DNA from: an uncultured Thermoleophilia bacterium
Lineage (GTDB): Bacteria > Actinomycetota > Thermoleophilia > Gaiellales > Gaiellaceae
NCBI GenBank assembly: GCA_963705605.1
Contig: CAVPKC010000003.1
Coordinates: forward strand, 281,619 to 345,618
DNA: 64,000 nucleotides
Direction of reading: 5' to 3'
Made by a program: the position numbers and the translations under genes. The notes under the pieces are model-generated. The model was not told the DNA's origin, did not search any database, and was given only the letters and a program-made list of their open reading frames with translations. Shown piece by piece: positions 12,797 through 34,120 of the stretch (its first letter is position 1; every line of letters begins with the position of its first letter).

Positions 12797-13210
12797 CTAA
12801 CCTGCAGTGAGAGCGGCTTCGACGACGTCGGCGGGGATGCGAATCTGGTCGATCAACACCGCATCGGCGGCACGGAGCGCGTCGACCACCTTCGTCGCCC
12901 AGAGGTTCTCGAACGCGACCAGGAGGGCAGAGCTGTTCAACGGCAGGTCGTCGCTGACCTCCTCGGCGTCTTCCGATCCCAGCGCACCCGGGTGGGTGAC
13001 CTCGATTGCGAGGAAGCCGGCGCCGTCCTCGCCCAGGTCCGCCGCCTCGAGGGTCGTCACGGTGCCGTCCTGATCCTTCATGACGAAGAGGAGGTCGATC
13101 ACGCGAATCGTGCCGTTGTCTACGAGCTCCATGATCGCCGGCGTGATACGCCCGGTGAACTTGTTGCCGGGGAAGCCAATGATGTACACGTCGACAGGGC
13201 CTACTGCCAT
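12797..13210 (-). CDS. DUF6325/DUF1269-like small protein
   Basis: 137-aa ORF MAVGPVDVYIIGFPGNKFTGRI.P....LVD.GTIRVIDLLFV.KD.DG, matching the recalled pattern of this family. Confidence 0.55.
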   Translation of the reverse strand: MAVGPVDVYIIGFPGNKFTGRITPAIMELVDNGTIRVIDLLFVMKDQDGTVTTLEAADLGEDGAGFLAIEVTHPGALGSEDAEEVSDDLPLNSSALLVAFENLWATKVVDALRAADAVLIDQIRIPADVVEAALTAG

Positions 13211-13355
13211 TCTCTCTCCTCTTCGAGGTTGCTTTCAGGTGAGAGCGCGCTCGAACTGATGTCCGGCCGCAAACACCTCTTCTCCATGCCAGCTGCACAC
13301 TAGACGAAGAGACTTCTTCGTGGACCGGCGACGCCGTCGCTCGGCAGCCGTCTCA

Positions 13356-13403
13356 CGAGAGCGGACGACGGGGCTCGAACCCGCGACCCTTGGCTTGGGA
13401 AGC
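13356..13403 (-). repeat. attL-like copy of the 3' half of tRNA-Gly(CCC), 48 bp, identical to 25320..25367
   Basis: gagagcggacgacggggctcgaacccgcgacccttggcttgggaagcc is present at both sites in the same orientation. Only the right copy continues into a complete tRNA. Confidence 0.85.
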
Positions 13404-13485
13404 CGCGCCACTGGCGGCGACGCGCGACGACTGACGACGACGAACGTACGCAACGATGCGGGTTTGAGGCTGTTTCGGTAACGCC

Positions 13486-13623
13486 CTTAGCCCGCATGGC
13501 TCCGTCCGCCGTTTCTCGGACGTTTGGGCATGGAGTGGGCATGAGAACGGTGGCCACTACTCACCGTCAGCTCGCGCCGCACGGTACCGCGTTCGATCCC
13601 GGCGAAGATCAGTCGGATTGCCA
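13486..13623 (-). CDS. Hypothetical 45-aa ORF with a strong RBS, reading through the left GGGCATG repeat
   Basis: GGGAGGAG lies 6 nt upstream of the ATG at 13623. Translation is MAIRLIFAGIERGTVRRELTVSSGHRSHAHSMPKRPRNGGRSHAG. It may be a truncated remnant. Confidence 0.25.
13518..13545. repeat. Island-end motif, left copy: GACGTTTGGGCATGGAGTGGGCATGAGA (GGGCATG-N4-GGGCATG)
   Basis: 26/28 identical to 25233..25260, in the same orientation. It lies about 115 nt inside the left tRNA repeat. Confidence 0.7.
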
Positions 13624-13648
13624 TCTCGATCTCCTCCCTGCCTGCCCG

Positions 13649-13686
13649 CCCACGCCACGGCCGCCTTGGTGGGCGGTCGTGGCGTG
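13649..13686 (-). terminator. Long GC hairpin (16-bp stem with one G-U pair, 6-nt loop) downstream of the 120-aa ORF
   Basis: ccacgccacggccgcc ttggtg ggcggtcgtggcgtgg. There is no U tract, so a terminator role is tentative. Confidence 0.35.
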
Positions 13687-13722
13687 GCGTGCAGACAGAG
13701 CCGATGTGACACGAATCAGTCG

Positions 13723-14085
13723 TCAGACGGCGACGGCGACGATGAGCTGCTCCTCGTCGAAGACGGCCGTTTCTGCGCCGACGACGACGTGCTGAAGGCG
13801 GACGACCTCCCGAAGAGCCGCCGTCGAGTCCCGGCCGAGGAACGGTGATCCAGCCCCGTCCGTGAGGAACCTCCAGACCGCCTTGAGGCTCGCCTCGTCA
13901 ATCGGATGTGTCTCGTCACGCAGTGCGGCTGCGATCGCGCGCAGCGAGGGAGCGCACGCAGTGCTAATGCTCGGCTGGACGAGGTAGCGGGGTCCCTGGC
14001 CGATGTAGGGGCGCTCCGGGACAGCTGCTCGCTCGACGCGCCGCGCCAGCTGCTGGCGCCTCTTCATGGTCCGGTCACGCTTCAC
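13723..14085 (-). CDS. Hypothetical protein (120 aa)
   Basis: ORF track only. No motif recognised. Confidence 0.4.
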   Translation of the reverse strand: MKRDRTMKRRQQLARRVERAAVPERPYIGQGPRYLVQPSISTACAPSLRAIAAALRDETHPIDEASLKAVWRFLTDGAGSPFLGRDSTAALREVVRLQHVVVGAETAVFDEEQLIVAVAV

Positions 14086-14259
14086 GATCTGCTCCTTTCC
14101 TCACTGACCGCTTCATGCGGTCGGTCTCGCGGAGCGTGCAGCCCGGCGGTAAAGCACCGACGAAGCACTGCCAAAGCGGAGGTGAGGGATCAGCTAATGC
14201 CCCGCGTTGCCGGGTCGGTTGTGCCTGCTGTCTGCCCGGTTTACGCTTGCCGAACTCAG

Positions 14260-17200
14260 ATGGAGTTTCGGATCCTCGGGCCGCTCGAGGTCTGCTCGGA
14301 GGGACGTGAGATCTCCCTCGGCGGAGCGAAGCAGCGCGCGGTGCTCGCCGTTCTGCTCCTTCACCGCAACGAGGTCGTCTCCACCGATCGCCTGATCAAC
14401 GAGCTCTGGAGCGACCGTCCGCCGGCGACCGCTCCCAAGGTCGTCCAGGTGTACGTCTCTCAGCTTCGCAAGGCGCTGAGAGGTCGGCACGCGCGGGACG
14501 AGGCCGACAGTATTCTCGTTACGCGTGCCCCGGTTATTTGCTTCGGATCGAGCGGGGAGAGCTCGACGCCGACCGCTTCGAGCAGCTCGTCGACGAGGGC
14601 AGGCGCGCGCTCGCGGCAGGGAGTCCTCGGCTGGCGGCCCATACACTGCTGGAGGGCCTGGCGCTGTGGCGCGGGCCCGCGTTTGCCGACTTCGCCCACG
14701 AATCGTTCGCGCAAAACGAGATCGCGCGACTCGAGGAAGCCCGCGTGTCGGCGCTCGAGGAACGAATCGACGCCGACCTTGCGCTCGGTCGCCACGCCGA
14801 GCTCATTGGTGAGCTCGAGTCGCTCGTCGCAGCCTATCCGTTACGAGAGAGGCTTCGTGGACAGCTGATGCTTGCCCTCTATCGCTCGGGGAGACAAGTC
14901 GAGGCTCTCGACGCCTTCCGAGCAGCCCGCAGTGCGCTCGTCGACGAGCTCGGGCTTGAGCCGAGGCGAGAGCTGCGTGAGCTGCAGCAGGCGATTCTGC
15001 GACAGGACGCCGCGCTCGACCTGGCCGCTCGAGTCGAGCCCGCGCCCGAGCCGCCGCACGACCTCTTCGTCGGCCGCGGGCTGCAGCTGGAGGAGTTACG
15101 CGCAGGCCTGAACGACGCCTTTGCCCGTCGCGGTCGCCTCTTCCTGCTGGTCGGTGAGCCCGGGATCGGGAAGAGCCGCCTGGCCGATGAGCTGATCGCG
15201 GATGCGCGGGCGCGCGGCGCCAGCGTCGTCATCGGTCGCTGCTGGGAGGCCGGCGGGGCGCCCGCCTACTGGCCGTGGGTCCAGGCGCTGCGTCTGTACG
15301 TCGAGCAGAGCGATCCCGGAACCCTGCGGTCGGAGCTCGGGAGCGGCGCCCCGGACCTCGCGCAGATCGTCCCGGAGCTACGCGAGCTCTTCCCCGATCT
15401 GCCGCAGCCATCTTTGGAGGTCGAGGGGGCGCGCTTCCGGCTCTTCGATTCTGTTGGCCACTTCCTCAGGAACGCTGCGGCTTCCCGTCCGCTCGTGCTC
15501 GTGCTCGACGACCTTCACGTCGCCGACGAGCCGTCGCTGCTCCTGCTTCGGTTCGTCGCGGGAGGGATCGCCGGCAGCAGGATCCTCGTCGTCGGCACGT
15601 ACCGCGACGTCGACCCGACCATGCGCGATCCGCTCGCGTCGACGCTCGCGGAGCTGGCGCGGGAGCAGGTCACGCGACGCATCGAGCTCGGTGGATTGAC
15701 CGAAGAGGACATCTCGGAGTATGTCAAGCTCACTGCCGGCACGACCCCGTCCGCAGGGTTGAGCGCGGCGATCCATACAGAGACGGGAGGCAACGCGCTC
15801 TTCGTCGCCGAGGTCGTGCGCCTGCTCGCAGCGGATGGACATGTCTCCGACGTCGATGCCCGCGAGCTCTGGACACTCGGGATCCCGCAGGGCGTTCGCG
15901 AGGTGATCGGGAGGCGGCTGCGGCGCTTGTCCGAGGAGTGCGTGGTCGTGCTCACGCTCGCCTCCGTGCTCGGCCGCGAGTTCGCGCTCGATGCCTTGCA
16001 GCGGTTGACCGAGGTCCCCGCGGACGAACTGCTCGACTTGCTTGACGAGCCTGTCGCAGCTCGTGTGCTGACGTCGGTGCCAGGCGCGCGGGGACGCCTG
16101 CGGTTCGGGCATGCGCTGGTCCGCGAGACCCTTTACGAAGGGCTGACGACTCCCCGGCGGGTGCAGCTGCATCGACGCGCCGGCGAGGCGCTCGAGGCGC
16201 TCTACGCGCAGGATCAGGAACCTTATTTGGCCGAGCTTGCCCATCACTTCCTCGAGGCTGCCCCGGGCGGAGACCTCGACAAGGCTCTCGGGTACGCGCA
16301 ACGCGCCGGCGATCGCGCGCTCGAACTTCTCGCGTACGAAGAGGCGGCGCGCCTGTACGAGCTGGCGCTGCAAGCGCTCGAGCTGCAGCAGCCGGTCGAC
16401 CTGTCTGCGCGGTACGCGCTGGTGGTCGCGCGCGGGGACGCGCTCGCAAGGGGCGGGAGCACGCCCGAGGCCGAGCAGGCGTTCCTCGCCGCTGCCGATC
16501 TCGCAAGGGCGTCTCTGCTCCCCGAGCACCTGGCCCGTGCCGCGCTCGGCTACGGGGGCAGGTTCCCGTGGCTCCGCGCCGGACGCGACCCCTGGCTTGT
16601 CCCGCTGCTCGAAGAAGCGCTCGAAGCTTTGGGCGAGACCGAACCGGTGCTGAGAGTGAAACTGCTCGCACGCCTGGCGGGAGCCCTTCGCGACCAGCCC
16701 TCGCTCGAGCCGAGATCTTCGCTCAGCCGTCAAGCGGTCGAGATCGCGCGCGGCCTCGGTGACCCGGACACGCTCGGTTACGCGCTCGCAAGCGTCTTCA
16801 CGGCAACCTGGGGACCCGAGCTGGGAGAGCCGGCGACGATCGCCGAGGAGGTCACCCGGCTGGCAGAGGAGACCGGAGAGGCGGAGCGAGCTCTCGATGC
16901 CTGCCGGCTGCGCTGGTGGGTGGCGCTGTCGCTCGGCGATGTTGCAGCCGTCGAACGGGCGGCGGATGACCACCGAGCGCTCGCGGAGCAGCTGAAGCAG
17001 CCCTCGCTGCAGTGGTACAACGTAGTAATGCGCTCGACCTTGGCCATCTTCCAGGGTGAGTTCGCCGAAGGGGAACGGATCGCAGAAGAGGCGTTGCAGC
17101 TCGGCCAGCAGGCACAGAGCTGGGACGCCGGTTTCTCGTACCGCATCGCGCTCTTTTCCCTACGCCGCGAGCAGGGCCGGCTGGAGGAGATCGAGGACAT

Positions 17201-17768
17201 GGTCCGACAGACCGTCGACGAGTACGCCGGATATCGCTCGTTCCGCTGCCTCCTTGCACTTCTCGAGTGGGAGCTCGGGCATCGGGAGGAGACGCGAGGC
17301 ATGTTCGACGAGCTGGCAGCCGATGATTTCGCTGCGCTTCCGCGTGATGCCGAGTGGCTCTTCTGTCTCTCCGTTCTCGCCGAGGTCGCTGCGTACCTAC
17401 AGGACCGCGACCGTGCGGCGATTCTTCACCGCCAGCTCCTTCCCTACGCGCGGCTGAACGCGGTCGCCGCCGGCGAGTTCGCCATCGGCTCCGTGGCGCG
17501 TTACCTCGGACTGCTCGCCACGACGATGGGACACTGGAACGAGGCCGCGCAGCACTTCGAGGATGCACTCGAGATGAACGAGCGCATGGGCGCCCGCCCC
17601 TGGCTCGCCCACACCCAGCACGACTACGCGCGGACGCTGCTCGCCCGCGACGAGCCTGGCGACCGCGAACGCGCCCAGGAGCTCCTCCACCAGGCGCTCG
17701 CGACCTACCGCGAACTCGGCATCGAGCCATCCGCAGCGAAGGCTTCGGCGGTGCCGCGGACGCCCTAG
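14260..17768 (+). CDS. SARP/AfsR-family regulator (winged HTH, BTAD, P-loop NTPase, TPR). One frameshift near 14533.
   Basis: MEFRILGPLEV..GGAKQRAVLAVLLLHRNEVVS.DRLI.ELW (ORF 13906..14868 frame) continues as LRIERGELDADRFEQL..BTAD..LLVGEPGIGKSRL..VLVLDDLH..TPR in ORF 14538..17768. The junction reads gccccggttat where gccccgggttat would keep the frame, so one G is missing from a run. Confidence 0.8.
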
Positions 17769-17792
17769 TCGACGTCCTGGAACCCCGCATCG

Positions 17793-18032
17793 GTGACCGT
17801 CGAAAGCCTAGAGCGGGAGGTGGCGACAGCCGGCGATGCGGTTCGCGGAGCCGTGGTGCACGAAGCCGTGCGGATCATGGCTGCGGTAGCTCCAGACGAG
17901 ATTCTGGTCTCGGAGACGGTCCCGGCCCTCGTCTCGGGTCTGGGTCTTCGCTTCGAGCCGCGCGGCGAGTTCGAGCTCAAGGGGTTCAGGGCGCGCAGCC
18001 TCTTCGCGTACGCGGACCGAGCGCCCGCGTGA
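17793..18032 (+). pseudogene. C-terminal fragment of a class III adenylate/guanylate cyclase domain
   Basis: GDAVRGAVVHEAVRIMAAVAPDEILVSETV..F..RGEFELKGF resembles GD.VN.A.R.....P..ILVSE.V......G...LKG. It is only 79 aa and lacks the N-terminal half. Confidence 0.45.
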
Positions 18033-18105
18033 TTGCTCGAGAGACATTCCCGCACACTCGGGCACACGGCCACGCCGTCGCTTGACACTCGGTAGCGTCG
18101 TCCCG

Positions 18106-18609
18106 ATGTCGAGGATCTTGGTGACCGGCATGTCGGGAACGGGCAAGTCGTCGGCGCTCGCCGAACTTGGCCGACGCGGCTATCGCGTCGTAGACACCGA
18201 TGATCCGGGCTGGCGCGAGTATCGCGAGTAGGTTGAGTCCTCCGACGAGGTGCACCGCGGCGAGTGGCTCTGGGTCGAGGAAAGGATCACCGGGCTGCTG
18301 GACTCCGATGATGGTCGCTCGCTCTTCGTTCAAGGGTGCGTGAGGAACCAGTCGAAGTTCTACGACCGTTTCAACGCGGTCGTCCTGCTCAGCGCCCCTG
18401 CTGACGTGATCCTTGACCGGATCGCGCGCAGAACGACGAACAACTACGGGAAGACTCCAGTGGAACGAGCGATGATCTTGGATGACCTCGCCAGGGTCGA
18501 GCCGCTGCTCAGAGCGAGCTGCACGCATGAGCTGGATGCCAGCCGACCGCTCGATGAAGTCGTCGTCGACTTGATCGCGATCGCGTCGCGCCCGATGACG
18601 ACGTCCTAG
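18106..18609 (+). pseudogene. P-loop kinase (AAA/shikimate-kinase-like) interrupted by an in-frame TAG at 18229-18231
   Basis: MSRILVTGMSGTGKSSALAELGRRGYRVVDTDDPGWREYRE-TAG-VESSDEVHRGEWLWVEERI... continues in the same frame into ORF 18250..18609. Confidence 0.6.
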
Positions 18610-18744
18610 GCCGCCCCAGCCTTCGAGGGACATTCCCGAACACTGGCCCAGGCCGCTACTCCCTGCTTAGGGTGGCGCAACAAGCCATAACGAGCCCGCC
18701 CCACGGCTTCTCGTCAGCCGACGTTCTCGATGATCTCGACCAGC

Positions 18745-19521
18745 TCATTTCCAGAGCCGGATGTCGCCAACCTGCGTCGGCGCCTCGTCGGCAAGCTGGT
18801 GGCTGAAGTTGGCGACGAACACGCCGCTTCCAGGAGCGGTTAACTTCGCGTATGCAGAGTCCGGGAGATCGAAGACGACGACGCCTTGCCTCGCCTGGTC
18901 GGGCTGGATCACCTCGGAGTTCCAAACCCACGAGTCCTCGACAGGTCCGTTCTCGGCGTTGAAATCCTCCGTGTAAGTGTTGTCGCCGATCCCAAGAACG
19001 ACCTGGCCTACGTAGACTTGCTGTGGCGTACTTGCGCGATTCGTGATCTCGACGGTCACAAGAACAAAGGTTCCTAACGCCTGTACCCGTCCGTCCGGGA
19101 AATCGACCGGGTCATAGTTGGGCGATTCGACACGCCTGGCGGTCTCCACGGACACAAGACGGGCGTCGAGCTCGTCGAGACGCGCCGTTCCATCCTTGTT
19201 CACAACGACGTACGTGGTGCCGTCATCGATGCACGTGCCTGTCTTACCTCCTTCGATTGAGATTCCGGCTGTACCGCAGTCGGGAACGCCGGAGGCATCG
19301 GTGGTCCCACTGTCCTCTTCCGTCTCCGTCTCGGCGGTTGCGTCCGTCTCCGGGATCACCTCAACCGTCGCTTCGGCCGACGGCGTAACTGTGACCGTGG
19401 CGCCGATCGTCTCCGCGACGGTGACGGTTCTTTCGCCCGCCGCCGAACTGCCGCCACACGCGGTTAGAAGTGCGCCAAGCAAGAACCCGGCGCCGGCTGC
19501 CATCAATCGAGCGGATCCCAT
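18745..19521 (-). CDS. Lipoprotein with a DUF4352-like immunoglobulin-type domain
   Basis: Lipobox LLTACGGSS, a Thr/Glu-rich linker, then the pattern FVLVTVEITNRASTPQQ. Confidence 0.6.
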   Translation of the reverse strand: MGSARLMAAGAGFLLGALLTACGGSSAAGERTVTVAETIGATVTVTPSAEATVEVIPETDATAETETEEDSGTTDASGVPDCGTAGISIEGGKTGTCIDDGTTYVVVNKDGTARLDELDARLVSVETARRVESPNYDPVDFPDGRVQALGTFVLVTVEITNRASTPQQVYVGQVVLGIGDNTYTEDFNAENGPVEDSWVWNSEVIQPDQARQGVVVFDLPDSAYAKLTAPGSGVFVANFSHQLADEAPTQVGDIRLWK

Positions 19522-19650
19522 CTGCTAACGGACGACTACGACCATAGGGCTGATGCTTGCTAGCCGCAAGACGAAGACCGGGGCGTCCTGAACGTCGTTC
19601 GGTTCGACAATGGTGGCTTCGCGGTAGTCACGCCTGGGCAGCGGGGGATC

Positions 19651-19992
19651 TTGTTCGACGGGGATTCGCGGCACGAGAGCAAGCTCGCTTCGCTCGCGGA
19701 AGCGACCGACCCCACCTACCAGGCGGAGATCCTGATGTCGGAGTCCGTTTACCAGATCCTCCATGACGTGCCGATGAGGAAGGCGCGGCCCTGGTTCGCC
19801 GACGTCAGCGGCCGGGCCGTCGTCGTCAACGCCAACCTCCTCATCGGTCGCGAGGAGGAGGACGTCTACGCCCAAGTGTCCCGCACCGCCTTCGCCCGCC
19901 GCGGAAGTCGAACTCGAACTCAAGAAGCGGCTCCGCGCGACCCCGGTTCTCGCTTCGATCGCGGCGCTCGGAAAGGCGTGGCTGACCGATGA
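19651..19992 (+). pseudogene. Degenerate cyclase-homology-like fragment or hypothetical ORF
   Basis: GDSRHESKLASLAEATDPTYQAEILMSESVYQIL loosely follows G[DT].VN.A.R.E..A....I..S......L. The match is weak. Confidence 0.25.
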
Positions 19993-20436
19993 CGAAGCTG
20001 GCAAGGCGAAGGCGCGGGCGATCTTGGACGACAAACGGATCGACTGGTCGATCGGGCAAGTCCGCGGGGAGATGCCTCATCCCTCGTTCTGACGTAACCC
20101 CTTCCGAGCTCCTCCGTCCCTCCTGGTACGTCGGGCCTGCCACGCTCGGACAGCGAAGAAGATCACCACCGCCGAAAAGAGCCCGGAGGTGACGAGGCGG
20201 TCGAGCGGTCACGGGCGGCAAGGTCATCCTGCATCGGCGACAGAGTCGGCTCCCCGGCGCAGGAGGTTCGTACGCACCGCCAGGCCGCTACACTCGATCG
20301 TGCATCACGAGAGGCATCGCACGTCGGTGCCCGCCAACCTGGGTAGCCCCAAGGTGGCAAGTCCCGATAGGGACGATGCGGCTCGAGTCGAGCAAGCGGC
20401 TACGTACGGGGCTCCCACGACCGAAGAGGAGCCAAC

Positions 20437-20574
20437 ATGGACATCGGAGAGCCGATCCGGGTGATCGAGATCGAACCCGTTGAGGAACCGGCGCCAACCA
20501 AACCAGATGCACCTCGAGACCCGTGCAAGCCGGCACGCACGCAACCCGACCGTGAAACACAGCCGGCACGATGA
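20437..20574 (+). CDS. Small acidic/Pro-rich ORF (45 aa), translationally coupled to the next gene
   Basis: GAGGAG lies 5 nt upstream of the ATG. Translation starts MDIGEPIRVIEIEPVEEPAPTKPDAP. The stop overlaps the next start (ATGA at 20571-20574). Confidence 0.45.
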   Translation: MDIGEPIRVIEIEPVEEPAPTKPDAPRDPCKPARTQPDRETQPAR

Positions 20575-21188
20575 AAGCCCCCGACTTGATCGAACCGGTG
20601 GTCGGTTGGAGAACCTGGATCGTCGAAGGCGGCGACGTTCCTCTTCTCCGTTCCCCACAACGAGAGACACAGGTCTGGGCTCCGGGCCGCGCCTTCAGCG
20701 CCGTCTGCCTGGCCGTCCCGAACCTGACGAAGCCGGAGGGACGTGGCTGGCGACGATCGCACCTTCCGCCAATCGAGAGCTGCACATGCGGCGTCTACGC
20801 AACGAAGTCCAAGGAGCCCAGCTACGCGTCAGCAACGAACATCAAGCCGGTCCCATGGGTGGCTGCCCTCGGCGTTCGGAGCCTTGTTTACGGCCAGGTT
20901 GCGCTTTGGGGAACCGTCGTTGAACACCAGGACGGCTACCGCGGCGAGTACGCCTACCCGAGGCGGATCATCGTGCCACACATGTTCCGCAGCTACCTGC
21001 TCGAACCGGACGGACGCTACATCCGTCGGCTCTCGGCGGACGAAGCAGCAGACGAGCTCGCACGCTCCTATCAGGTTGACGTGACCGTAAGCGACGCCGT
21101 CTGGCGGTTCGATTCGCGCGGGACTCCTCAAAGGCCTCGGCCGACGAGAAGTTCACCCGGGCGTTCGTTGCGGCATGACGGCGCCTGA
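20571..21188 (+). CDS. Hypothetical protein (205 aa) with a GWR.W...H..P...C.CG.YA motif
   Basis: ORF track: VVGWRTWIV..AVC..HLPPIESCTCGVYATK. I recall similar unannotated proteins in actinobacterial mobile DNA but cannot name a family. Confidence 0.55.
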   Translation: MKAPDLIEPVVGWRTWIVEGGDVPLLRSPQRETQVWAPGRAFSAVCLAVPNLTKPEGRGWRRSHLPPIESCTCGVYATKSKEPSYASATNIKPVPWVAALGVRSLVYGQVALWGTVVEHQDGYRGEYAYPRRIIVPHMFRSYLLEPDGRYIRRLSADEAADELARSYQVDVTVSDAVWRFDSRGTPQRPRPTRSSPGRSLRHDGA

Positions 21189-21317
21189 ACCGCCGAAACG
21201 CGAAAACTGTCTGTTCAAGCCGAGTACGAGCCCGCCGTGGTGTCGTCGTGGCCGGTCCAGTTCGTGTGGAGAAAGATCAGGGCCGCTCAACCATGCGCAA
21301 ACGGGCATTCCTCCACA

Positions 21318-21335
21318 GTTGACGACGTCGTTAAC
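21318..21335. promoter_or_regulatory. Imperfect 18-bp palindrome GTTGACGACGTCGTTAAC in the low-GC spacer upstream of the secreted-protein gene
   Basis: The half-sites match 8/9. It contains a TTGACG -35-like hexamer. The role is speculative. Confidence 0.2.
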
Positions 21336-21609
21336 TGAGATCCCCGCGTGGCGACAGAATGGCAACGCTCGCCATCCTACGGTCGAGTGCCGGAGGGGAT
21401 TGAGCACGACTCACCAGTGTCGACAGAATCGAGCGATGTCTGAAGCCGCGACTGGCGTCGCCCAGGGTGGGTTCGGAGTGTGACGATCGAGCGGCTACCT
21501 CGGCGTGAGAGTGACCTCCCACATCGAGCTTCCGTGGTTTCTCGGATGCGGGACCATCGCCGGTAGGAATAGACTCGACCGAGTTCGATCCTTAACGAAG
21601 GGGCGACGG

Positions 21610-22392
21610 TTGAGGCCGTTCAGAGCTGTGGCTTTGGTCGCTGTTCTTGCAGTCTTTGCGCTCACTCCTTCGGTTTTTGCGGCCCCAAGTGGTGGAGCCC
21701 TGGATTGGAGCATCGCGGACGGAGATCACCCGTCTCTCACTTGGAGCTTCGCTCCGGGAATCTGTGTTTCGGCGGTTGAGATAGCCACTAGTCCGGCCAT
21801 GGGGTCGGATGGCTTCTACACGGAGAATCTTGTCTTGTTTGAGGCCTTCAGCCCTGATCGCTGCTCGCCCGGTAGGTGGGTTTCGTCAGACCCGCTCGAT
21901 CCAGGGAGCTACTACGCTCATGCCGAGATCGTCTCTTTCGACCCGGAGATCGGAGAGGGGTGCTGCGACTGGCGCTGGGTGGGCCTGACCAGCTTTGGTG
22001 TTCCGTGTCCCGAGGGCTCATTCCCGACGTCAAGTGGCTGCGAGCGAACAGAGGATGACAACCGGCCTCCGACCTTAGAGGACGCAGAGATGACTCCGAC
22101 CGGAAGAGCACGGGGAGGGCGTCATCTCAGACTCTGGGTACAGGTGCACGCCTGCGATGACGGCAGCCCACTCAGGCTTCAGGTGAGGATGAAGCAAGGA
22201 CGTCGAGCGGAAGTCGCAACGAGACATCTGGGTCGGGTTGATGGTTGTGGAACGTTCACGCGAAGCCTGATAAGCCCGATACCGGTGCGGCGTGGAAGCG
22301 TCAAGGTGACGGTGTGGGTGGAGGATCGACCCTCTGTTGGGGAAGCTTGGAGGCCCAGCCGTAGCTACAGCGAGACCTGGCAGGCCACCTGA
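21610..22392 (+). CDS. Secreted hypothetical protein (about 260 aa)
   Basis: TTG at 21610 follows GAAGGGG. The signal peptide is MRPFRAVALVAVLAVFALTPSVFA. The mature part is Cys-containing and has no recognised domain. Confidence 0.55.
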   Translation: MRPFRAVALVAVLAVFALTPSVFAAPSGGALDWSIADGDHPSLTWSFAPGICVSAVEIATSPAMGSDGFYTENLVLFEAFSPDRCSPGRWVSSDPLDPGSYYAHAEIVSFDPEIGEGCCDWRWVGLTSFGVPCPEGSFPTSSGCERTEDDNRPPTLEDAEMTPTGRARGGRHLRLWVQVHACDDGSPLRLQVRMKQGRRAEVATRHLGRVDGCGTFTRSLISPIPVRRGSVKVTVWVEDRPSVGEAWRPSRSYSETWQAT

Positions 22393-22587
22393 CAGAACCC
22401 GTTCTTCACCACTGCGCTAAGGAGGACCACGCTCGTGACGGTGATTCGGTCGGCGCAAGGTCGTCCCCGTGGCAACAACGGCAACAGTTACCGTTCGCTC
22501 AGGTTCGCTCGCAGCGATCGCTCCGCGAGCAGAGTCGCTCAACGTGCGGTTTTCGCTAACTGACGCGAACGGGCGCTGACGGCTGCC

Positions 22588-22634
22588 CCAGCTCGACAAG
22601 CTGCGGGTCACTGGTTCGAGCCCGACCGGGCGAG
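22588..22634 (+). other. Degenerate tRNA-3'-half-like fragment (anticodon arm GAC, GGGTC, TTCGAGC T-loop, 7-nt acceptor-like end)
   Basis: CCAGC TCGACAA GCTGC GGGTC ACTGG TTCGAGC CCGAC CGGGCGA G has the same spacing as the tRNA-Gly 3' half. The T stem pairs only 3/5, and there is no matching 5' acceptor strand upstream. Confidence 0.25.
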
Positions 22635-22635
22635 G

Positions 22636-25124
22636 TTAGCTCGTGGCCGCCCTCTTCAACGCCGGCCACGATCCCTTCGCGGCGTCGACATCGGACTCGG
22701 AAAGCAGCAGGTAGCGCCACTCAGCCTCGGCCTTCTCGTCGTTACTGACGTGGCTTGCCCAGCGCTCGGCCGCCTCCCGCTTTGCCTTCACCTCGGTGCT
22801 GGCGATCTCCTTTTCCATCTTGGGCTCGACCAACCAGTGGATGCCGTCGGTGTCGACAGCGAGGAAGTCGGGGTTGTAGGAACCGCCTTCCCAGATGATC
22901 GGCACGTCGTCGTTGTGCAGGCGAACCCAGAAGGCAATCTCGTCGGAGTCGTCAAGGGCCGTTGCGACAGTGCGCTCCGTGCTCGAGTCGAACCAGACCT
23001 GCTTGTAGAGCGACCGCTTCCAGCCCTCGTAGCCGATGCCTTTCTCGAACTTTCCAGTGCGGTCTTTGCTTGTCTCCGGGCGACCGATACGGATCGGGTG
23101 CGAACGGCTTGAACTCAACGATCTCCTCGTACTTCGGCTGCCTTCGTCCGCTTACGCTGCTCCTCAGTCAGCTTGCGGATCAGGCTGCCGGCGGCGGTGT
23201 CGAGGTACCCGGCGAGCACTTCCTCGGCCTTCGCGCCGAGGCCCTTGACGAAGGCGTTGATGATCCGCTTCGCGGCGTTCTTCTCCTTCGGGCGCTGAGT
23301 GACGATCTCGGCGGCGAAGATCCGCTTGAGCAGCTCCTTCTTCGCTTCGTCGAGGGTGAGCTCGCTGCTCGAGGCGGCGATCCTGTCGACCGCCTGCCCG
23401 GTGACGAGCTTCGTGCGTGGTAGACCGTCCGGCCCATTCTCGATCGTCGCGCTCAGTCGCTCGCGGCGAAACTCCTTCTCAGGATCGGTAGCCAGCCGCT
23501 CGCCGAGCTTCTTGAACGGCTCGTGACTCGTCAGGTCAGCAAAGGAAAAGTCGCTCTGAACGTCGCCAACCGCGAACTGCGGGACTTGGACTGGCGGGAA
23601 CTTCTTGTTCGGCTTCAGCTCTACCAGCTTCTCGGCCTCATCCTCAACGCTCTTCTTGCGCTCATCGGCCGAGACAACCGTCGCGCCGCCCTCCGTCACC
23701 GTGCCGTCGTCGGAGATGTGAACCGGGGCTTCCACCTCCGTCGTCTCTGTCGTAGCGACGAGCTGACCGTGCATATTCCGCCGCAAGACGGCTCGCGTAC
23801 GGTTGTTGACGAAGGCCTGGTTCAGCACGCCGGTCTTCTTGAGGAGCGCCTCGTAGCGCTCGTGGGCCACGACCTCGAGCGTGTCGAGCATCTCGATCTC
23901 CGTGTACGCACCGAACGGCAGCCGCATCCCGCGTCCCAGCGTCTGCTCGGTCAGGATGTCGGAGATCGAGGAGCGCAGGGAGGCGATGACGTAGACGTTC
24001 TTGACGTCCCAGCCTTCCTTGAGCATCCCGACCGAGACGATGATTCGGACCGGCGCTCGTCGGCTCCTCGACGGCGTCAGGGCGGCAAGCATCTTCTCGC
24101 GCTTCTCACCCGGCGCCTTCGAGTGCACGACGAGCACGCTGTCGGCGTACTCGCCACCAGCAACTCGACTGCCGTAGCAGCTCGGCAATCTCGCTCGGCG
24201 TCCTCGATCGTCGGCGCGATCACGAGCATCACCGGATTGATCGTCTCGACACTCTCGCCATTCTTCTTGGCTGCTCGACGTAGCTCTCGACCGCCTGGCG
24301 CTTCGCCTCAAGCAGCGCGATCCCGTCGTTGAGCTTCGTTGCGAGGTCCTTACGGTCGTCCTTGCGCCCGACGATGACCGGCGTCTTGACGAGCTTGTCG
24401 GCGATCGCCGCCGCGAGCGGATAGCGGAAGATGATCTTCCTGCCTTCTCGGCGTCCTTGTGCGGCGTCGCCGTCAGGCCGATCAAGGCGTAGGGGTTGAG
24501 ATCGCGGATCGCGTCCGAGAACGCCTTGCCGTAGTAGGCGTGGTGCTCGTCGGCGAAGACGATCAGGTCGTCGAGCTCCTGCAGGTGCTCGTAGAAGCGC
24601 GCTCGCCAAGCCCCTCTCGGAACTCGTGCGTCTTGCGGCCCTGCTTCGTCGTCGGCTTCATCAGCGACTGGACGGTGAAGATGAAGAGCTTGACCTTCTC
24701 GTCGTCGTCCATCACCGCGCGTTGCCGGCGTCGTCGAAGTTCTCCGAGGTGATGACGACCGGCTTGACCTCCATCCCGCGCGAACAGGCTCTTCGGGTGG
24801 CCGGGCGTGAAGTTGCGCCCGTCTTCTCGAGGATCGTCCGACCTGGGGCGATGACCGCGAAGTTGCGCGCAGCCGAGCTCGGCGAAGTACTCGATCGCCG
24901 CCGCGAGGATGTACGTCTTGCCGACGCCCGTCGCCACATCGACGACGCCCTCGAACATCTCCTCCTTCTGCGTCGACCTGGTAGTGGTCGGCGACTACGG
25001 TGGCGATGCTCTCAAGCGCTTCCTTGTTCGGCGCTCGCAGGTCGAGCCGCGCGCTAATTGCGTCGATGATGTCCTGCCGAACTAGCGCGTCTTCAGCGCC
25101 GTCGATCACCGGCTCCGCGCTCAT
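22636..25124 (-). pseudogene. Type III restriction Res-type DEAD/DEAH helicase with a C-terminal PD-(D/E)xK nuclease. Multiple frameshifts. No mod gene nearby.
   Basis: The pieces lie in three frames. They are MSAEPVIDG..DLRAPNKEALESI, then FEGVVDVATGVGKTYILAAAIEYFAELG, ARNFAVIAPGRTILEKT, LIVFADEHHAYYG and LIGLTATP. These are followed by RIIVSVGMLKEGWDVKNVYVI..R..IS.ILTEQTLGRGMRLPFG and the nuclease tail YNPDFLAVDTDGIHWLVEPK (ORF 22636..23118). Confidence 0.7.
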
Positions 25125-25232
25125 GCCTTCGTGCGCGCCGGCATCTGCTTCCGCTTGCGCCTTGAGGTCTTCGGGGTCGCCGGGAACGGCTCGCCAGCTA
25201 CGCCGAGCGAGAGGCGAAGGCGGCAGGCCGCT

Positions 25233-25260
25233 GACGTTTGGGCATGGAGCGGGCATGGGA
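25233..25260. repeat. Island-end motif, right copy: GACGTTTGGGCATGGAGCGGGCATGGGA
   Basis: 26/28 identical to 13518..13545. It lies about 60 nt inside the right tRNA repeat, upstream of the Res start. Confidence 0.7.
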
Positions 25261-25292
25261 GCCTGATTCGTGGTCGCCGCCCTTAGACGGAG

Positions 25293-25315
25293 AAAGCCCC
25301 GACTAGCGGGGCTTT
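25293..25315. terminator. Hairpin AAAGCCCC-gactagc-GGGGCTTT immediately downstream of tRNA-Gly
   Basis: Perfect 8-bp stem with A/T-flanked ends, usable on either strand. It sits between the tRNA 3' end and the island cargo. Confidence 0.5.
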
Positions 25316-25322
25316 CCTGGAG

Positions 25323-25395
25323 AGCGGACGACGGGGCTCGAACCCGCGACCCTTGGCTTGGGAAGCCAATGCTCTACCAGCTGAGCTACGTCCGC
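25323..25395 (-). tRNA. tRNA-Gly (anticodon CCC)
   Basis: Hand-folded as GCGGACG TA GCTC AGCTGGTA GAGC A TTGGC TTCCCAA GCCAA GGGTC GCGGG TTCGAGC CCCGT CGTCCGC T. CCA is not encoded. Confidence 0.9.
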
Positions 25396-26339: not shown

Positions 26340-27358
26340 CCTGTCGTGCCCGTCTAGCGCGTAACGGCCGCCGGCGAGCTGCGAGAGCTTCTCGAACGCG
26401 TGCTGCGCCTCGATCCGCCGGACGGTGCCGGACCGCGAACGCATGACGATCGAGTCGGTGACCGCGCCGGTCTCGTGTACCGAACGCCGCGCAGGAGCGC
26501 GCCGTCGGTGACGCCGGTCGCCGCGACGAACACGTCGTCGCCGGCGACGAGGTCGTCGGTCGTGAGCACGCGCTCGAGGTCGTAGCCCGCGCTCGACGAG
26601 TTGCCGTCGCTCCTCGTCGGACCGCGGCCACAGCCTGCCCTGGATCGCCCCGCCGAGGCACTTGACCGCGGCCGCCGAGATCACGCCTTCGGGCGAGCCG
26701 CCGATGCCCATCATCAGGTCGACGGGCGAGTCGGGGCGGGCGGCCGCGAGCGCGGGGGCGACGTCGCCGTCGCGTGATCAGGTTCACCTTCGCGCCGACC
26801 GTCGCGCAGCGCCGGCGATCAGCTCCTGGTTGCGGTCGCGGTCGAGGACGACGACCGTGATCGTCGCTCGGCTTCGACGCCCTTCGCCTCCGCCGCGCGC
26901 CGGACGTTCTCCGCCGGGCGTGGCGCGTCGATGTCGATCACGCGCGGCGATCTCCGCTCCGCAGGCGATCTTGTCCATGTAGACGGCAGCGCCCGGGAAG
27001 AACATCGTTCCGCGCTCGGCGACGCGCGATCACGGCGATCGCGTTCGGCTGCCCGACGGACGTCAGGCGCGTGCCCTCGAGCGGGTCGACCGCGACGTCG
27101 ACCGCGCGGCGGCTGGCCGTTCCCGACCGACTCGCCGTTGAAGAGCATCGGCGCCTCGTCCTTCTCGCCCTCTCCGATCACGACGACGCCGTCCATCGGA
27201 ACGGTGTCGAGCATGTACCGCATCGCGTCGACGGCGGCCTGGTCGGCGGCGTTCTTGTCGCCGCGTCCGACCCAGCGGCCAGCGCCGAGCGCGGCCGCCT
27301 CGGTCACGCGGACGAGCTCGAGCGCAAGGTTGCGGTCGGGAGCCTGGGCCACCGCCAT
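26340..27358 (-). CDS. glpX: Class II fructose-1,6-bisphosphatase, several frameshifts in this assembly
   Basis: The N terminus is [64 protein letters not shown]. The middle block [16 protein letters not shown] is in another frame. The C terminus is [42 protein letters not shown]. The exact stop is unclear. Confidence 0.8.
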
Positions 27359-29292: not shown

Positions 29293-30571
29293 CTACCGCC
29301 CGGCTCGAGCCGGAACCGCACGGCCATGGCGATCCGATCCAGCGGCGTGGGATGCGTGCCGAGCATGAGCTGCGCCCAGGCCGGCGGATCAGGGTCGACG
29401 AGGCCCGTCGCGACGAACCGCCGCTGAAGCCCGATATCGCCTGCCGGGTCGTTCGTCGCCCGCAGCGCCAGCCAGTCGGCCTCGGCCTCGTACCGGCGTG
29501 AGATCGCGTTCTGCGCCGGGAGTGTCAGCGACCGAGAGCGAGAACGCGCAGAGGAGCGCGAGCGGGACGAGCGCCGGATCCCGCAGGCCGCCGCGCCGTT
29601 CCGTCACCCAGGCGACGAGCGCGATCCCCGGGATCGCGAAGAGCGCGAACCAGGCGACGCCCTTCCAGACATGGTGCCGGGCGACGTGCGCGAGCTCGTG
29701 CGCGGAAACCGCATGCGATCTCGTCCGGCGTGAAGCGGCCGTCGAGCAGCGTGTCGTAGAGGACCACGTGGCGGGTCGGGCCGATCCCGGTCACCATCGC
29801 GTTGGCGGCGGTCGTCCGGCGGCTGGCGTCGACGACCTCGACCGACTCCACCCCGACGCCGAGCCGGCTCCCGAGCTCCTCGATCCGCAGCGGCGAGAGC
29901 CCGGTCCGGCAAGCGGCGAGAAGCGGTTGAAGAGCGGCTCGATGACGAGCGGCTGGGCAAGCACGACGAGAACGCCGAGCGCCGGCGACGGCGACTCCGC
30001 CGGGATCCACCAGCGACGGCCGAAGCCGCACTGCGAGCGCAGACGGCACCGGCGACCGCGGCGCGACGACCACCGCGTGACCGCAAGCGACACGGTCCGG
30101 TCGCCGAGCCACGCGAGATATCCCTGCTCGGAGAGCCCGTAGCGCCGCGCCCACCAGTGCGCCGCCGCTCCGAGCGGAAGCGCCGCGAGCCAGACTGCGA
30201 GCGAGCAGCACACGCCCAGCACGACACCGGTTCGGACCGGGCGGCACGGGGCAGGCGAAGCAGCGCTGCATCGAAGCCGCGAGCGGGCGGGCCTTCCAGG
30301 CGAGCAGCCCGAGCACGCCCAGCTCGACGACGGTCGACGCCACCCACAGCCAGCGCGTCACCGTGCGGTACGGCGTCGATCCGATCGAGCTCGGCGGCCG
30401 GGGAACCACGACGCGCGGATCGAGGGCGGGCAGGTCGAGCCCGGGCGTCCGCGTCCGGAGCAGCAGAATCGCCGCCACGGCCCAGATCCCGACACCCGCG
30501 GCCAGAACGAGTAGCGTTCGCCGCCGTCGATGCGCGTCGCGGTCATCTCCGACGTCCACGCGAACCTCCAC
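29293..30571 (-). CDS. M48 family (Ste24/HtpX-like) metallopeptidase, frameshifted in this assembly. The ends are approximate.
   Basis: The fragments lie in different frames. They are NAMVTGIGPTRHVVLYDTLL, then SAHELAHVARHHVWKG by hand translation, RRYEAEADWLALRATNDP and THPTPLDRIAMA. Confidence 0.65.
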
Positions 30572-31273
30572 GCCCTGGAGGCCGTGCTGGCTGCGATCGA
30601 CACGGGAACGGCCTGACGCCGTCTGGTGCCTCGGCGACGTCGTCGGCTATGGGCCCCAGCCTAGCCGGTGCTGCGAGGTGGTCGCCGCACACGCCGACGT
30701 CGGGCTCGTGGGCAACCACGATCTCGGGGTGCTCGGATCCGTCGAGCTCGACGACTTCTCGCCCGATGCGGCGTTCGCGGCGCGCTGGACGGCCGAGGTG
30801 CTCTGCGGCCGAGGCGCGCGAGCTATCTCGAGGCGCTGAGCCCGTACTCGATCGGCCGCCGCGGTCGCCCTCTACCACGGCAGCCCGCGCGACCCGATCT
30901 GGGAGTACGTGCTCGTCCGACGAGGCCGCGCTCGCGGCGCTCGAGCTGTCGCCGCGGCGCATCGTCCTCGTCGGCCACAGCCACGTCGCGCTCGCGATCG
31001 GGCTCGACGGCGAGCTCCACGGCGGCCTCGCACCCGAGGGAACCGATGATCGACCTCGACGAGGGCGCGAGCTGGCTCCTGAATCCGGGATCGGTCGGCC
31101 AGCCCCGCGACGGCGATCCGCGGGCCGCCTGGCTCCTGCTCGATCTCGCCGCCCGGCGGGCGGCGTTCCGACGCGAGCCGTACGCGATCGAGAGCACGCA
31201 GCGCGAGATCCTCGAGGCGGGGCTGCCGCGACCGTTCTGCGCATCTCGACTCGACGAGCGGAGACGCTGGCTA
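30530..31273 (+). CDS. Metallophosphoesterase (YfcE/MPP superfamily), multiple frameshifts in this assembly
   Basis: MRVAVISDVHANLHALEAVLAAID, then DAVWCLGDVVGYGPQP, GNHD, LYHGSPRDPIWEYV, VLVGHSH and NPGSVGQPRDGDPRAAW are spread over three frames. Confidence 0.7.
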
Positions 31274-31889: not shown

Positions 31890-33430
31890 TTGGCGCGAGT
31901 ATAGCCAGCAGGCGGGGGCCTGAACGGGCCGACGACGAGCAGGCTCGCCCCGTCATCTCGACCGGCGGCTCGATGCCGAGCAGATCGAGAGCACGTCGGC
32001 GCGAGGTCGCGCGAGGCCGCCACCCTCGCGGAGCGATAGCGCCCGACGCCGTGACGATCAGCGGCACCGGGTTCGTCGTGTGCGCCGTGTGCGGGCTCAC
32101 GCCGTCCTCCTCGAGCATCTGCTCGGCGTTCCCGTGGTCGGCGCAGACGAGCACGACGCCGCCCTTGGCGCGCAACGGCTTCGACCACCCGGCCGAGGCA
32201 GGCGTCGACGGTCTCCACCGCGCGCGACGACCGCCGGGATCACCCCGGTGTGCCCGACCATGTCGGGTTCGCGAAGTTGACGATCGCGAAGCGGTAGTCG
32301 CCCCGCGACAGCTCCTCGACGAAGCGATCCGTCGACCTCGGCCGCCGACATCTCGGGCTTCAGGTCGTACGTCGCCACGTCCCTCGGCGACGGGACGAGG
32401 ATCCGCGTCTCGCCCCGCCCACTCCTGCTCGCGCCCGCCGTTCAGGAAGTAGGTCACGTGGGCGTACTTCTCGGTCTCGGCGATGTGGAGCTGCGCGCAG
32501 CCCGTTCGCCGCCACCACCTCGGCGATCGTGTCGGTGACGTTCTGCTCCGGGAAGGCCACCGGGCAGTCGAGGTCGTCGCGGTACCGCGTCATCGTCGTC
32601 AGGTCGTACCCGCTCCTCGAGCAGGCGCTGCGTCAGCTGCCGCGCGCGATCGGGCCGGAAGTTGAAGAAGATCGCCGCGTCGTCGCGCGCCAGCCGCGGA
32701 GTGCCCTCGATCGACGACCGGCTCGATGAACTCGTCCGTGACACCTCGCGCGTAGCTCTCCTCGACGGCCGCCGACGGCATCCGGCGCCTGCCTGCCGTC
32801 GCCGCGGCACGATCGCGTCGAGCGCGCGGTCGGTCCGCTCCCAGCGCGCGTCGCGATCCATCGCGTAGTAGCGGCCGACGACCGTCGCGATCCGCCACCC
32901 CCTCGTCGACGAGCTCCCGCGAGGTCGCCGCGGCAGCGTGCGGCGAGACGTCACGGCCGTCGGTGAACGCGTGGACGAACGTCCGTTCTGCGCATCCCGG
33001 GCGGCGCGCGAGCTCGAGGAGCGCGCGGAGGTGGTCGATGTGCGAGTGGACGCCGCCGTAGGAGACCAGGCCCGAGCAGGTGGACGCGGCCTCCCCGCTC
33101 TCGCGCGCGGTCGGAACGCGCCGCGCGAGGGCCGGGTTCTCGAAGAGCGCGCCGTGCTCGATCGGCGCGGTTGACCCGCATCAGGTCCTGGTCGACGATC
33201 CGGCCCGAGCCGATCGTCAGGTGCCCGACCTCGGAGTTGCCCATCTGGCCCTCTGGCAGCCCGACCGCCTCACCGGACGCGTCGAGCGTCGTGTGCGGGT
33301 AGCGGCGCCCAGAGATCGTCGAAGACCGGCGTCTCGGCGAGCTCGACGGCGTTCCCCGGGCCGGCCGGGGCGAGGCCCCAGCCGTCGAGGACGACGAGCG
33401 CTACGAGTCGGAAGCGCCCGCGCGGCAAAT
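31890..33430 (-). CDS. gpmI: 2,3-bisphosphoglycerate-independent phosphoglycerate mutase, many frameshifts in this assembly. The ends are approximate.
   Basis: Scattered over all three minus frames are [113 protein letters not shown] and [12 protein letters not shown]. Confidence 0.8.
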
Positions 33431-34120
33431 GGCCTCGAAGGGATCGATCTCGAGCGAGGCGCCCCCGACGAGCGCGCCGTCCACGTCCGGCTCCGAGAGC
33501 AGGATCTCGGCGTTGTCCGGCTTGACCGAGCCGCCGTACAGGATCGGCACGTCGAGCAGGCCCCGGACGAAGGCGTGCGCCTCCTGCGCCTGGTCCGGAG
33601 TCGCCGTCTTGCCGGTGCCGATCGCCCAGACCGGCTCGTAGGCGATCGTCAGGCGCTCGTGGCCGCCCATGGCGTCGGCGATCGCCGAGACCTGACGGCG
33701 GAGCACGTCTTCGGTCAGGTCGGCTTCCCGCTCGTCCTCGAGCTCGCCGACGCAGGCGATCACCTCGAGCCCGGACGCGAGGGCGTGCGCCGCTCGGCGG
33801 GCGACCGTCTCGTCCGTGTCGCCGAACAGGTGACGGCGCTCCGAATGGCCGACGATCGTGCCCGTGACGCCGAGCTCGTGCAGCATGCCGGGCGAGACCT
33901 CGCCCGTGTAGGCGCCGGTCTCCTGCCAGTGCGCGTTCTGTGCGAACACGCGCGATCGGGGATCCAGGAGCGCCTCGACTGCGGCACCGAGCGAGACGAA
34001 CGGCGGGCAGACGACGACCTCCACTCCGTCGAGGTCGTCGAGCCGGCCGCGGAGCTCCCTGCAGAACGCGGCTGCCTCGACCGGCCCCTTGAACATCTTC
34101 CAGTTCCCTGCGATCAGCAC
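33401..34120 (-). CDS. tpiA: Triose-phosphate isomerase
   Basis: Intact ORF with a GTG start after GGAGG. It contains LIAGNWKM, GHSERR and YEPVWAIGTG. Confidence 0.9.
   Translation of the reverse strand: MLIAGNWKMFKGPVEAAAFCRELRGRLDDLDGVEVVVCPPFVSLGAAVEALLDPRSRVFAQNAHWQETGAYTGEVSPGMLHELGVTGTIVGHSERRHLFGDTDETVARRAAHALASGLEVIACVGELEDEREADLTEDVLRRQVSAIADAMGGHERLTIAYEPVWAIGTGKTATPDQAQEAHAFVRGLLDVPILYGGSVKPDNAEILLSEPDVDGALVGGASLEIDPFEAICRAGASDS

Follow-up and report, generated by a model that had tools for sequence, protein, structure and literature searches.

We analysed a 64,000-nt stretch of DNA, called the window throughout, from an uncultured Thermoleophilia bacterium (order Gaiellales, family Gaiellaceae; GenBank assembly GCA_963705605.1, contig CAVPKC010000003.1, positions 281,619 to 345,618), and focused on an 11.9-kb segment, the island, which lies between two copies of part of a tRNA-Gly(CCC) gene (Table 1). 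The 48-mer GAGAGCGGACGACGGGGCTCGAACCCGCGACCCTTGGCTTGGGAAGCC occurred as two exact copies in the window, in the same orientation and with no mismatch. No match was expected by chance, as judged from dinucleotide-preserving shuffles, and blastn found no third copy, whole or partial, in the 64 kb. The original prediction, made from the sequence letters without database searches, had described a perfect repeat in the same orientation around an island. Exact alignment of the two 48-mers, the check that it proposed, gave 48/48 identical bases; its right copy was correctly placed, and its left copy starts one base later than it had given, at 13357 and not 13356.

The right copy belongs to an intact tRNA-Gly(CCC) gene, which in the tRNA sense reads GCGGACG-TA-GCTC-AGCTGGTA-GAGC-A-TTGGC-TTCCCAA-GCCAA-GGGTC-GCGGG-TTCGAGC-CCCGT-CGTCCGC-T. 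The left copy, described earlier as an orphan half, was indeed called as a tRNA by neither ARAGORN nor Rfam, and is presumably the displaced original 3' part of the host tRNA-Gly gene. On the tRNA, the repeat spans positions 29-74 and extends 2-3 nt beyond the 3' end. Three nucleotides at the close of the 5' anticodon-stem strand fall within it, as does the complete anticodon loop; the earlier reading, which was right about the intact tRNA, had left out the loop and these 3 nt. By inspection of the sequence, identity was lost immediately on both sides of both copies. Integrases of the tyrosine family that target tRNA genes usually leave a block of identity that runs from the anticodon stem and loop, or from the T loop, to or past the 3' end of the tRNA. 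The extent of the 48-bp repeat is the one expected if a tyrosine integrase exchanges strands in or near the anticodon loop. Directly past the tRNA 3' end, island DNA forms an 11-bp G+C-rich hairpin, which is likely to serve as the transcription stop of the rebuilt tRNA, though it has no clear T run.

The DNA between the two cores was foreign to its surroundings by composition. In 3-kb intervals, the flanks had a guanine plus cytosine (GC) content of 0.705 ± 0.011 and lay at a tetranucleotide distance of 0.163 ± 0.021 from the flank profile, and within the island the GC content fell to 0.626-0.647 and the distance rose to as much as 0.391 (z = 10.8). In 1-kb intervals, GC was 61-65% at 18-25 kb compared to 67-74% in the flanks, and the compositional signal was strongest at 17-25 kb. 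The low GC that had been claimed for the island thus stands as a computed deviation in both measures, but the single line of 77% GC with which it had been contrasted is atypical of flanks at 67-74%.

Table 1. Features of the island and of its borders (positions in the window; ORF, open reading frame; SAM, S-adenosylmethionine; AF2, AlphaFold2; pLDDT, predicted local distance difference test)
Feature	Position	Strand	Basis and remarks
Left 48-bp att core, orphan tRNA part	13357..13404	-	Exact match; no tRNA call by ARAGORN or Rfam
Island body, 11,915 bp, foreign by composition	13405..25319		GC and tetranucleotide profile; six-frame searches with four libraries
Second repeat, left copy, GACGTTTGGGCATGGAGTGGGCATGAGA	13519..13546	+	114 nt inward of the core; contains two GGGCATG heptamers at 11-bp spacing
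Hairpin, near-perfect inverted repeat of about 16 bp	13650..13690		Folding -55 kcal/mol (106-nt context), z = -4.1
120-aa ORF, open, no known family	13723..14085	-	No Pfam and no PDB match; AF2 model pLDDT 55
AfsR/SARP-type STAND regulator (OmpR-type DNA-binding domain, BTAD, AAA_16, TPR)	14260..17768	+	Pfam, NCBIfam
P-loop kinase-like gene (AAA_18)	18106..18609	+	Pfam AAA_18 in two ORF pieces
DUF4352 lipoprotein, open	18745..19521	-	Pfam PF11611 (7e-07); lipoprotein-type N-terminus in translation
SAM-I/IV riboswitch aptamer, full length	20297..20409	+	Rfam RF01725, 53.0 bits against a gathering score of 41.1, E = 1.5e-6
Three-gene unit behind the riboswitch	20437..22392	+	45-aa ORF (20437-20574), ORF205 (20571-21188), secreted protein (21628-22392); all open
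Type III Res-like helicase-endonuclease	22636..25124	-	PADLOC REase_III (2e-32) in three frames; Pfam ResIII and RE_endonuc (PF04851, PF19778)
Second repeat, right copy, 26/28 nt, same orientation	25233..25260	+	59 nt inward of the core; upstream of the Res start by about 110 nt
11-bp G+C-rich hairpin on island DNA, directly past the tRNA 3' end	25288..25317	-	Folding -25.7 kcal/mol, z = -2.4
Right 48-bp att core, tRNA side	25320..25367	-	Exact match; tRNA positions from blastn and sequence reading
Intact tRNA-Gly(CCC), putative integration target	25322..25395 (start 25322/3)	-	ARAGORN; Rfam tRNA model, 70.6 bits, E = 4e-14

We scanned viral contigs with the part of the tRNA that runs from the T arm to the anticodon. 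The scan returned four contigs, three of which (L086, L087 and L089, from IMG/VR) carry only a partial tRNA and no full gene, the partial copies spanning positions 30-66, 29-74 and 27-66. Each of the three encodes a 375-417-aa ORF with tyrosine-integrase features at 76-220 nt from the site. The ORF of L087 matched the Phage_integrase catalytic domain and SAM-like domains, that of L086 an arm-DNA-binding domain and a SAM-like domain, and that of L089 only weakly a SAM-like domain (E = 5e-4). The three contigs show that tyrosine integrases use this sublocation of this isoacceptor. Read in the direction of the tRNA, the integrase gene follows the att site in two of the three contigs, which corresponds to the position of the Res-like gene in the island, and precedes it in the third, which corresponds to the left-end stretch of the island. 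By this layout, the island is without an integrase at both of the places where one would be expected: the right end is taken up by the Res-like gene, and the left end by 855 nt with no family match, followed by the regulator.

The search for recombination genes was made tolerant of frameshifts by scanning every stop-to-stop ORF of 50 aa or more (149 in total) in six frames between 13300 and 25330. Pfam matched 14 families, none of them for recombination, relaxases, type IV secretion systems or FtsK/Tra proteins, and PF00589, PF00239 and PF07508 were not among them. With NCBIfam, only matches of the AfsR/SARP, type III endonuclease, helicase and kinase types were obtained; PADLOC gave type III restriction models, one weak type IV restriction model (E = 3e-4) and one TPR model, and no recombinase; and PHROGs gave only helicase, endonuclease and unnamed families. 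Across the four libraries, none of the 149 ORFs matched an integrase, resolvase, recombinase, transposase, excisionase, relaxase, coupling protein or secretion component, in agreement with the earlier statement that no recombinase could be found in any frame, and neither Pfam nor PHROGs detected virion, replication or conjugation genes in the island. The left-end stretch between the core and the first identified gene (13405-14259, 855 nt; scanned as 13405-14270, 866 nt) had no match in six frames at E ≤ 5. Three tyrosine integrases and one serine recombinase from the fetched loci, used as tblastn queries, gave nothing below E = 0.3 in the whole window. In the rest of the window, no integrase was seen among the 25 of 109 families listed, in Pfam scans of the ORFs of the left flank and of the side of the window's second tRNA (tRNA-Leu), or by tblastn; the neighbour of tRNA-Leu is a membrane protein gene.

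A second, 28-nt repeat lies close inside both ends of the island, with the consensus GACGTTTGGGCATGGAG[T/C]GGGCATG[A/G]GA over its two copies. A search with this pattern gave 2 matches against 0.15 expected, 4 of the 8 GGGCATG heptamers on the same strand of the 64 kb fall within the two copies, and of 1480 random pairs of 250-nt segments drawn from the window, only 2 contained a pair of sites agreeing at 26 of 28 positions. Viral contigs contained no match to the repeat, and the three matches in metagenome sequence were all due to chance, one of them within a coding stretch for GFGHGVGMSQ. Were the island closed into a circle at the core, the two 28-nt sites would flank the core as arm-type sites do in attP. 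Regulators of the SARP family bind heptamer repeats with an 11-bp spacing (the heptamer plus four). As a SARP box, the repeat has the fitting spacing, with no plausible -10 element past it on either strand by reading of the sequence and with an empty promoter scan. We infer that the repeat is a candidate integrase arm-type site or regulator operator. Further inside the left end, the hairpin at 13650-13690 folded better than all 200 shuffled sequences; it has no T run, and a palindromic Rfam model matched it on both strands.

The cargo begins, after the 120-aa ORF, with the large regulator gene, for which Pfam gave Trans_reg_C (1e-11), BTAD (2e-48), AAA_16 (1e-24) and TPR_12, and NCBIfam gave AfsR (1.5e-39) in two frames; its translation shows one frameshift near 14524. 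The kinase-like gene that follows has an in-frame stop at codon 42 (18229-18231) in translation. Between the DUF4352 gene and the riboswitch, a short ORF on the forward strand (19564-19989) has a high third-position GC content and no library match; a likeness to the C-terminal part of a class III nucleotide cyclase domain was noted by eye. The riboswitch precedes three genes with no known function and not methionine or SAM genes. The first of these, the 45-aa ORF, has a good ribosome-binding site. The second, ORF205, falls into a large family of uncharacterised proteins of about 170-190 aa, which has 2715 representatives at E ≤ 1e-3, the invariant residues W..C..CxCG..WG..G.R..YP and no match in Pfam or PDB. 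Structure models were poor for both ORF205 (pLDDT 35) and the 120-aa ORF (pLDDT 55). The 120-aa ORF, the 45-aa ORF, ORF205 and the secreted-protein ORF have no Pfam family, and a fifth island ORF with no known function does have one. An independent short-read contig gave the same gene calls and, over 2.3 kb of the interior, agreed exactly with the island at the protein level; the junctions lie outside this span.

The Res-like gene at the right end, which encodes a helicase domain and a C-terminal endonuclease, aligned with its homologues by tblastn from the first residue to the last, in eight frame segments (-3/-1/-3/-2/-1/-3/-1/-2). Pfam and NCBIfam found no Mod methyltransferase in the island, and none adjoins the two closest homologues of the gene, in L084 (10001-12294, 83% nucleotide identity) and L085 (1964-3913, 75%). 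The gene may represent a family of solitary nucleases that is not part of a classical type III system. We considered it as a marker of an element family and rejected it, since L084 and L085 have unrelated flanks and share this gene alone. About 8 kb from the homologue in L084, a fragment of a large serine recombinase (20069-21004; PF07508 and a zinc ribbon) was observed, and the window holds nothing similar. Between the convergent Res and secreted-protein genes, the stretch 22584-22623 is 73-81% complementary to the att core and resembles the 3' part of a tRNA in degenerate, oppositely oriented form. As a third att site it was rejected, having no Rfam tRNA match at E ≤ 1 and being absent beside the Res homologues, and the resemblance is possibly due to chance.

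The island genes had originally been called mostly broken. This applies to the regulator (one frameshift), the kinase-like gene (in-frame stop) and the Res-like gene (at least seven frame changes), but not to the DUF4352 gene, the 45-aa ORF, ORF205, the secreted-protein ORF and the 120-aa ORF, which are open. Outside the island, several Pfam families were likewise split over ORFs in different frames, namely glpX (3 ORFs), chlorite dismutase (3), phosphoglycerate kinase (2) and UvrC (2), and both domains of phosphoglycerate mutase (gpmI) were each hit by two ORFs in different frames. Such split housekeeping genes lie at 26370-27340, 30530-31252, 31948-33707 and elsewhere, and are intact in relatives. 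When proteins of L003 were aligned to the window, glpX ran through frames -1/-3/-1, a 630-aa uvrC-like gene through -3/-1/-2/-3/-2 and another gene through 2/3/2, and arginyl-tRNA synthetase (ArgRS) stayed in a single frame. Besides ArgRS, the HSP70 gene and a 5.6-kb PAS/GGDEF sensor gene outside the island are intact, the sensor gene showing no change of coding phase. The breaks in the housekeeping genes amount to 1-3 shifts per kb and are probably better explained by indel errors of the assembly than by biology. Homopolymers were rejected as their cause: the window has 6 runs of at least 6 nt, with none in the island and none at the approximate shift sites. The in-frame stop in the kinase-like gene, unlike the frameshifts, cannot be an indel error. 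Since housekeeping genes outside the island are frameshifted as often as the genes inside it, the frame damage is a property of the whole sequence and not of the island, and the broken genes, an argument of the original prediction, do not show the island to be a fossil. The practical lesson is that broken genes in this assembly should not be read as island decay.

We also compared the locus with those of relatives. The ArgRS gene of the window, which adjoins the tRNA, encodes a protein 70-73% identical to the ArgRS of Gaiella and of Gaiellaceae and Thermoleophilia metagenome-assembled genomes (MAGs), and the closest ArgRS among 5.8 billion proteins were 72-78% identical; the collections searched contained no close relative. 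The order ArgRS to tRNA-Gly(CCC) was kept in 10 of the 12 nearest Thermoleophilia loci, and the right flank of the window was syntenic with L001-L003. Leftwards from the left core, the left flank carries DUF6325, SHOCT and methyltransferase genes, and it also holds genes for an NHL-repeat protein, a cupin, a GNAT protein and a YkuD protein; this flank was not found beyond the tRNA in any fetched relative. ArgRS and two left-flank ORFs had no exact-protein matches. Downstream of tRNA-Gly, the 12 Thermoleophilia loci contained no integrase, and the ORFs of about 400 aa there were glucosaminidases, deaminases and the like. Downstream of the tRNA, two relatives have a second, incomplete and diverged copy of its 3' part: in L007 (a Miltoncostaeaceae MAG, 13176-15082), the copy is 45 nt long with 87% identity and lies 1.8 kb downstream, with two small genes in between, and in L002 (a Gaiellaceae MAG, 5926-6208), it is 28 nt long with 93% identity and lies 182 nt downstream. 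These copies resemble the remains of older and smaller events of this kind at this site, and tRNA-Gly(CCC) appears to be a recurrent integration site in Thermoleophilia.

The reading of the two repeat copies as attL and attR, already put forward in the original prediction, fits the extent of the repeat, the foreign composition and the integrase-bearing viral contigs with the same tRNA segment. With a probability of roughly three in four, we consider the 11.9-kb island to be a cis-mobilizable element (CIME) or a decayed tRNA island, left in tRNA-Gly(CCC) by an element with a tyrosine integrase. In the proposed mechanism, an integrative element that encoded a tyrosine (phage-type) integrase, and whose attP carried tRNA positions 29-74, would have recombined at this attP with the tRNA-Gly(CCC) gene. 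Strand exchange in the 48 bp common to both would have restored an intact tRNA at 25322-25395, with the hairpin borne on the island behind it, and would have moved the gene's own 3' part to the opposite end (13357-13404). The present remainder would be a cargo island of 11.9 kb that keeps both att cores intact but has no means of movement of its own; its excision would require an integrase of the same specificity, supplied from elsewhere in the genome or by an incoming element. The junctions themselves point to a tyrosine integrase as their maker, which has apparently been lost rather than never present. The alternatives offered earlier, a fossil or dependence on a recombinase encoded elsewhere, are the right ones, and between them the identical cores, the unameliorated composition and the paired arm repeat lean slightly towards a recent or still usable element.

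Several observations weigh against this interpretation. The insertion is inferred from structure and composition, not by comparison: the public data scanned contained no empty site, no circular junction and no integrase-bearing relative of the island, a 29-nt pattern of the left junction had 0 matches in metagenome contigs, and the att arms matched only tRNA-Gly genes in phage and plasmid collections. The left third of the island (14-18 kb, one large regulator gene) is nearer to the host in composition (GC 0.69, z about 4). Because the composition there is nearly host-like, the island may be a mosaic and not a single insertion. The many frame errors of the source assembly make fine details less reliable. 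The window is a 64-kb view of a contig of at least 2.05 Mb, and a cognate integrase elsewhere would lie outside this view.

Alternatively, the island could be an active hitchhiker with functional att cores and arm-type sites, which the integrase of another element in the same genome would excise and re-integrate, either in trans or, as with streptococcal CIMEs, in cis once the two elements have accreted in tandem. The two 48-bp cores are identical, compared with 87-93% for the orphan copies in relatives, which would suit such an element, but their identity may just mean that the insertion is recent. Similarly, the 28-nt repeat is present in both arms at distances typical of arm sites, with its heptamers 11 bp apart, but it could equally be the operator of the island's own regulator, SARP-type proteins being heptamer binders. 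The composition has not been ameliorated towards that of the host and several cargo genes are open, which favours activity; against it, no cognate integrase is visible in the window, and the scan of public data turned up neither a circular nor an empty-site sequence. On balance, we regard an active hitchhiker as unlikely. The more specific proposal of a working non-autonomous element of Gaiellales, which has perfectly kept att cores and paired arm-type sites (GGGCATG-N4-GGGCATG), borrows a tyrosine integrase from another element of its genome and moves the Res-like nuclease and the riboswitch operon between cells, is distinctly unlikely.

An assembly artefact, in which a foreign 12-kb segment from another organism was joined at the shared tRNA sequence, would account for the differing composition of the island and could be suspected because the source, from an uncultured lineage, is one very long contig and has many frame errors. 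It would, however, need two independent mis-joins at a 48-bp repeat that is far shorter than long reads, and the regulator at the left end is host-like in composition. The short-read contig, which does not cover the junctions, reproduces 2.3 kb of the interior at the protein level, and other assemblies have partial tRNA copies downstream of the same tRNA, so that we consider an artefact highly improbable. The island could also be autonomous, with an unrecognised recombinase among the 120-aa ORF, ORF205 and the 45-aa ORF. Five island ORFs are without known function, four of them also without a Pfam family, and the ORF205 family has invariant Cys, Trp, Arg and Tyr residues. This proposal is barely credible, since the junctions are of the classical tyrosine-integrase type, the ORF205 family has 2715 representatives and yet no Pfam or PDB match, and ORF205 lies behind a SAM riboswitch, which points to metabolism or regulation; the models (pLDDT 35 and 55) were too poor for a fold search.

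If it is a CIME or a decayed tRNA island, as we favour, the island adds one clear tRNA-targeted island for Gaiellales (Thermoleophilia), a lineage of soil bacteria for which hardly any mobile elements have been described. It is otherwise ordinary, as islands without an integrase between tRNA repeats are common and already have a name. Among the systems with which it can be compared, the viral contigs L086, L087 and L089 share with it the use of tRNA-Gly(CCC) from positions 27-30 to 66-74; they differ in having an integrase and a GC content of 0.44-0.56, and show no other similarity to the island. The remnants in L007 and L002 resemble the island in that a partial tRNA 3' copy lies downstream of the syntenic tRNA with no integrase, but they measure only 1.8 kb and 0.2 kb, with copies at 87% and 93% identity, compared to 11.9 kb and an identical copy in the island.

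In mycobacteriophage L5, the common core of attP and attB reportedly overlaps a tRNA-Gly gene. Prophages and tRNA islands such as L5 and the E. coli pheV island (PMC11537424) share with our island the repeat of a tRNA 3' part, the tRNA rebuilt at one end, the orphan copy at the other end and the foreign content, as well as possible arm-type repeats near the core; in these elements, unlike the island, the integrase adjoins the att site. A named class close to the island is that of CIMEs, which were defined for Streptococcus and are catalogued in ICEberg 2.0, where 235 are listed (PMC6323972). CIMEs are defined by their relation to an integrative and conjugative element of the same att specificity, which mobilises them after accretion, whereas no such partner is known for the island, whose host is an uncultured Gaiellales lineage. 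At the sequence level, the island resembles CIMEs in lacking genes for integration, excision and transfer, and in carrying only cargo between an intact attL and an intact attR (PMC6323972).

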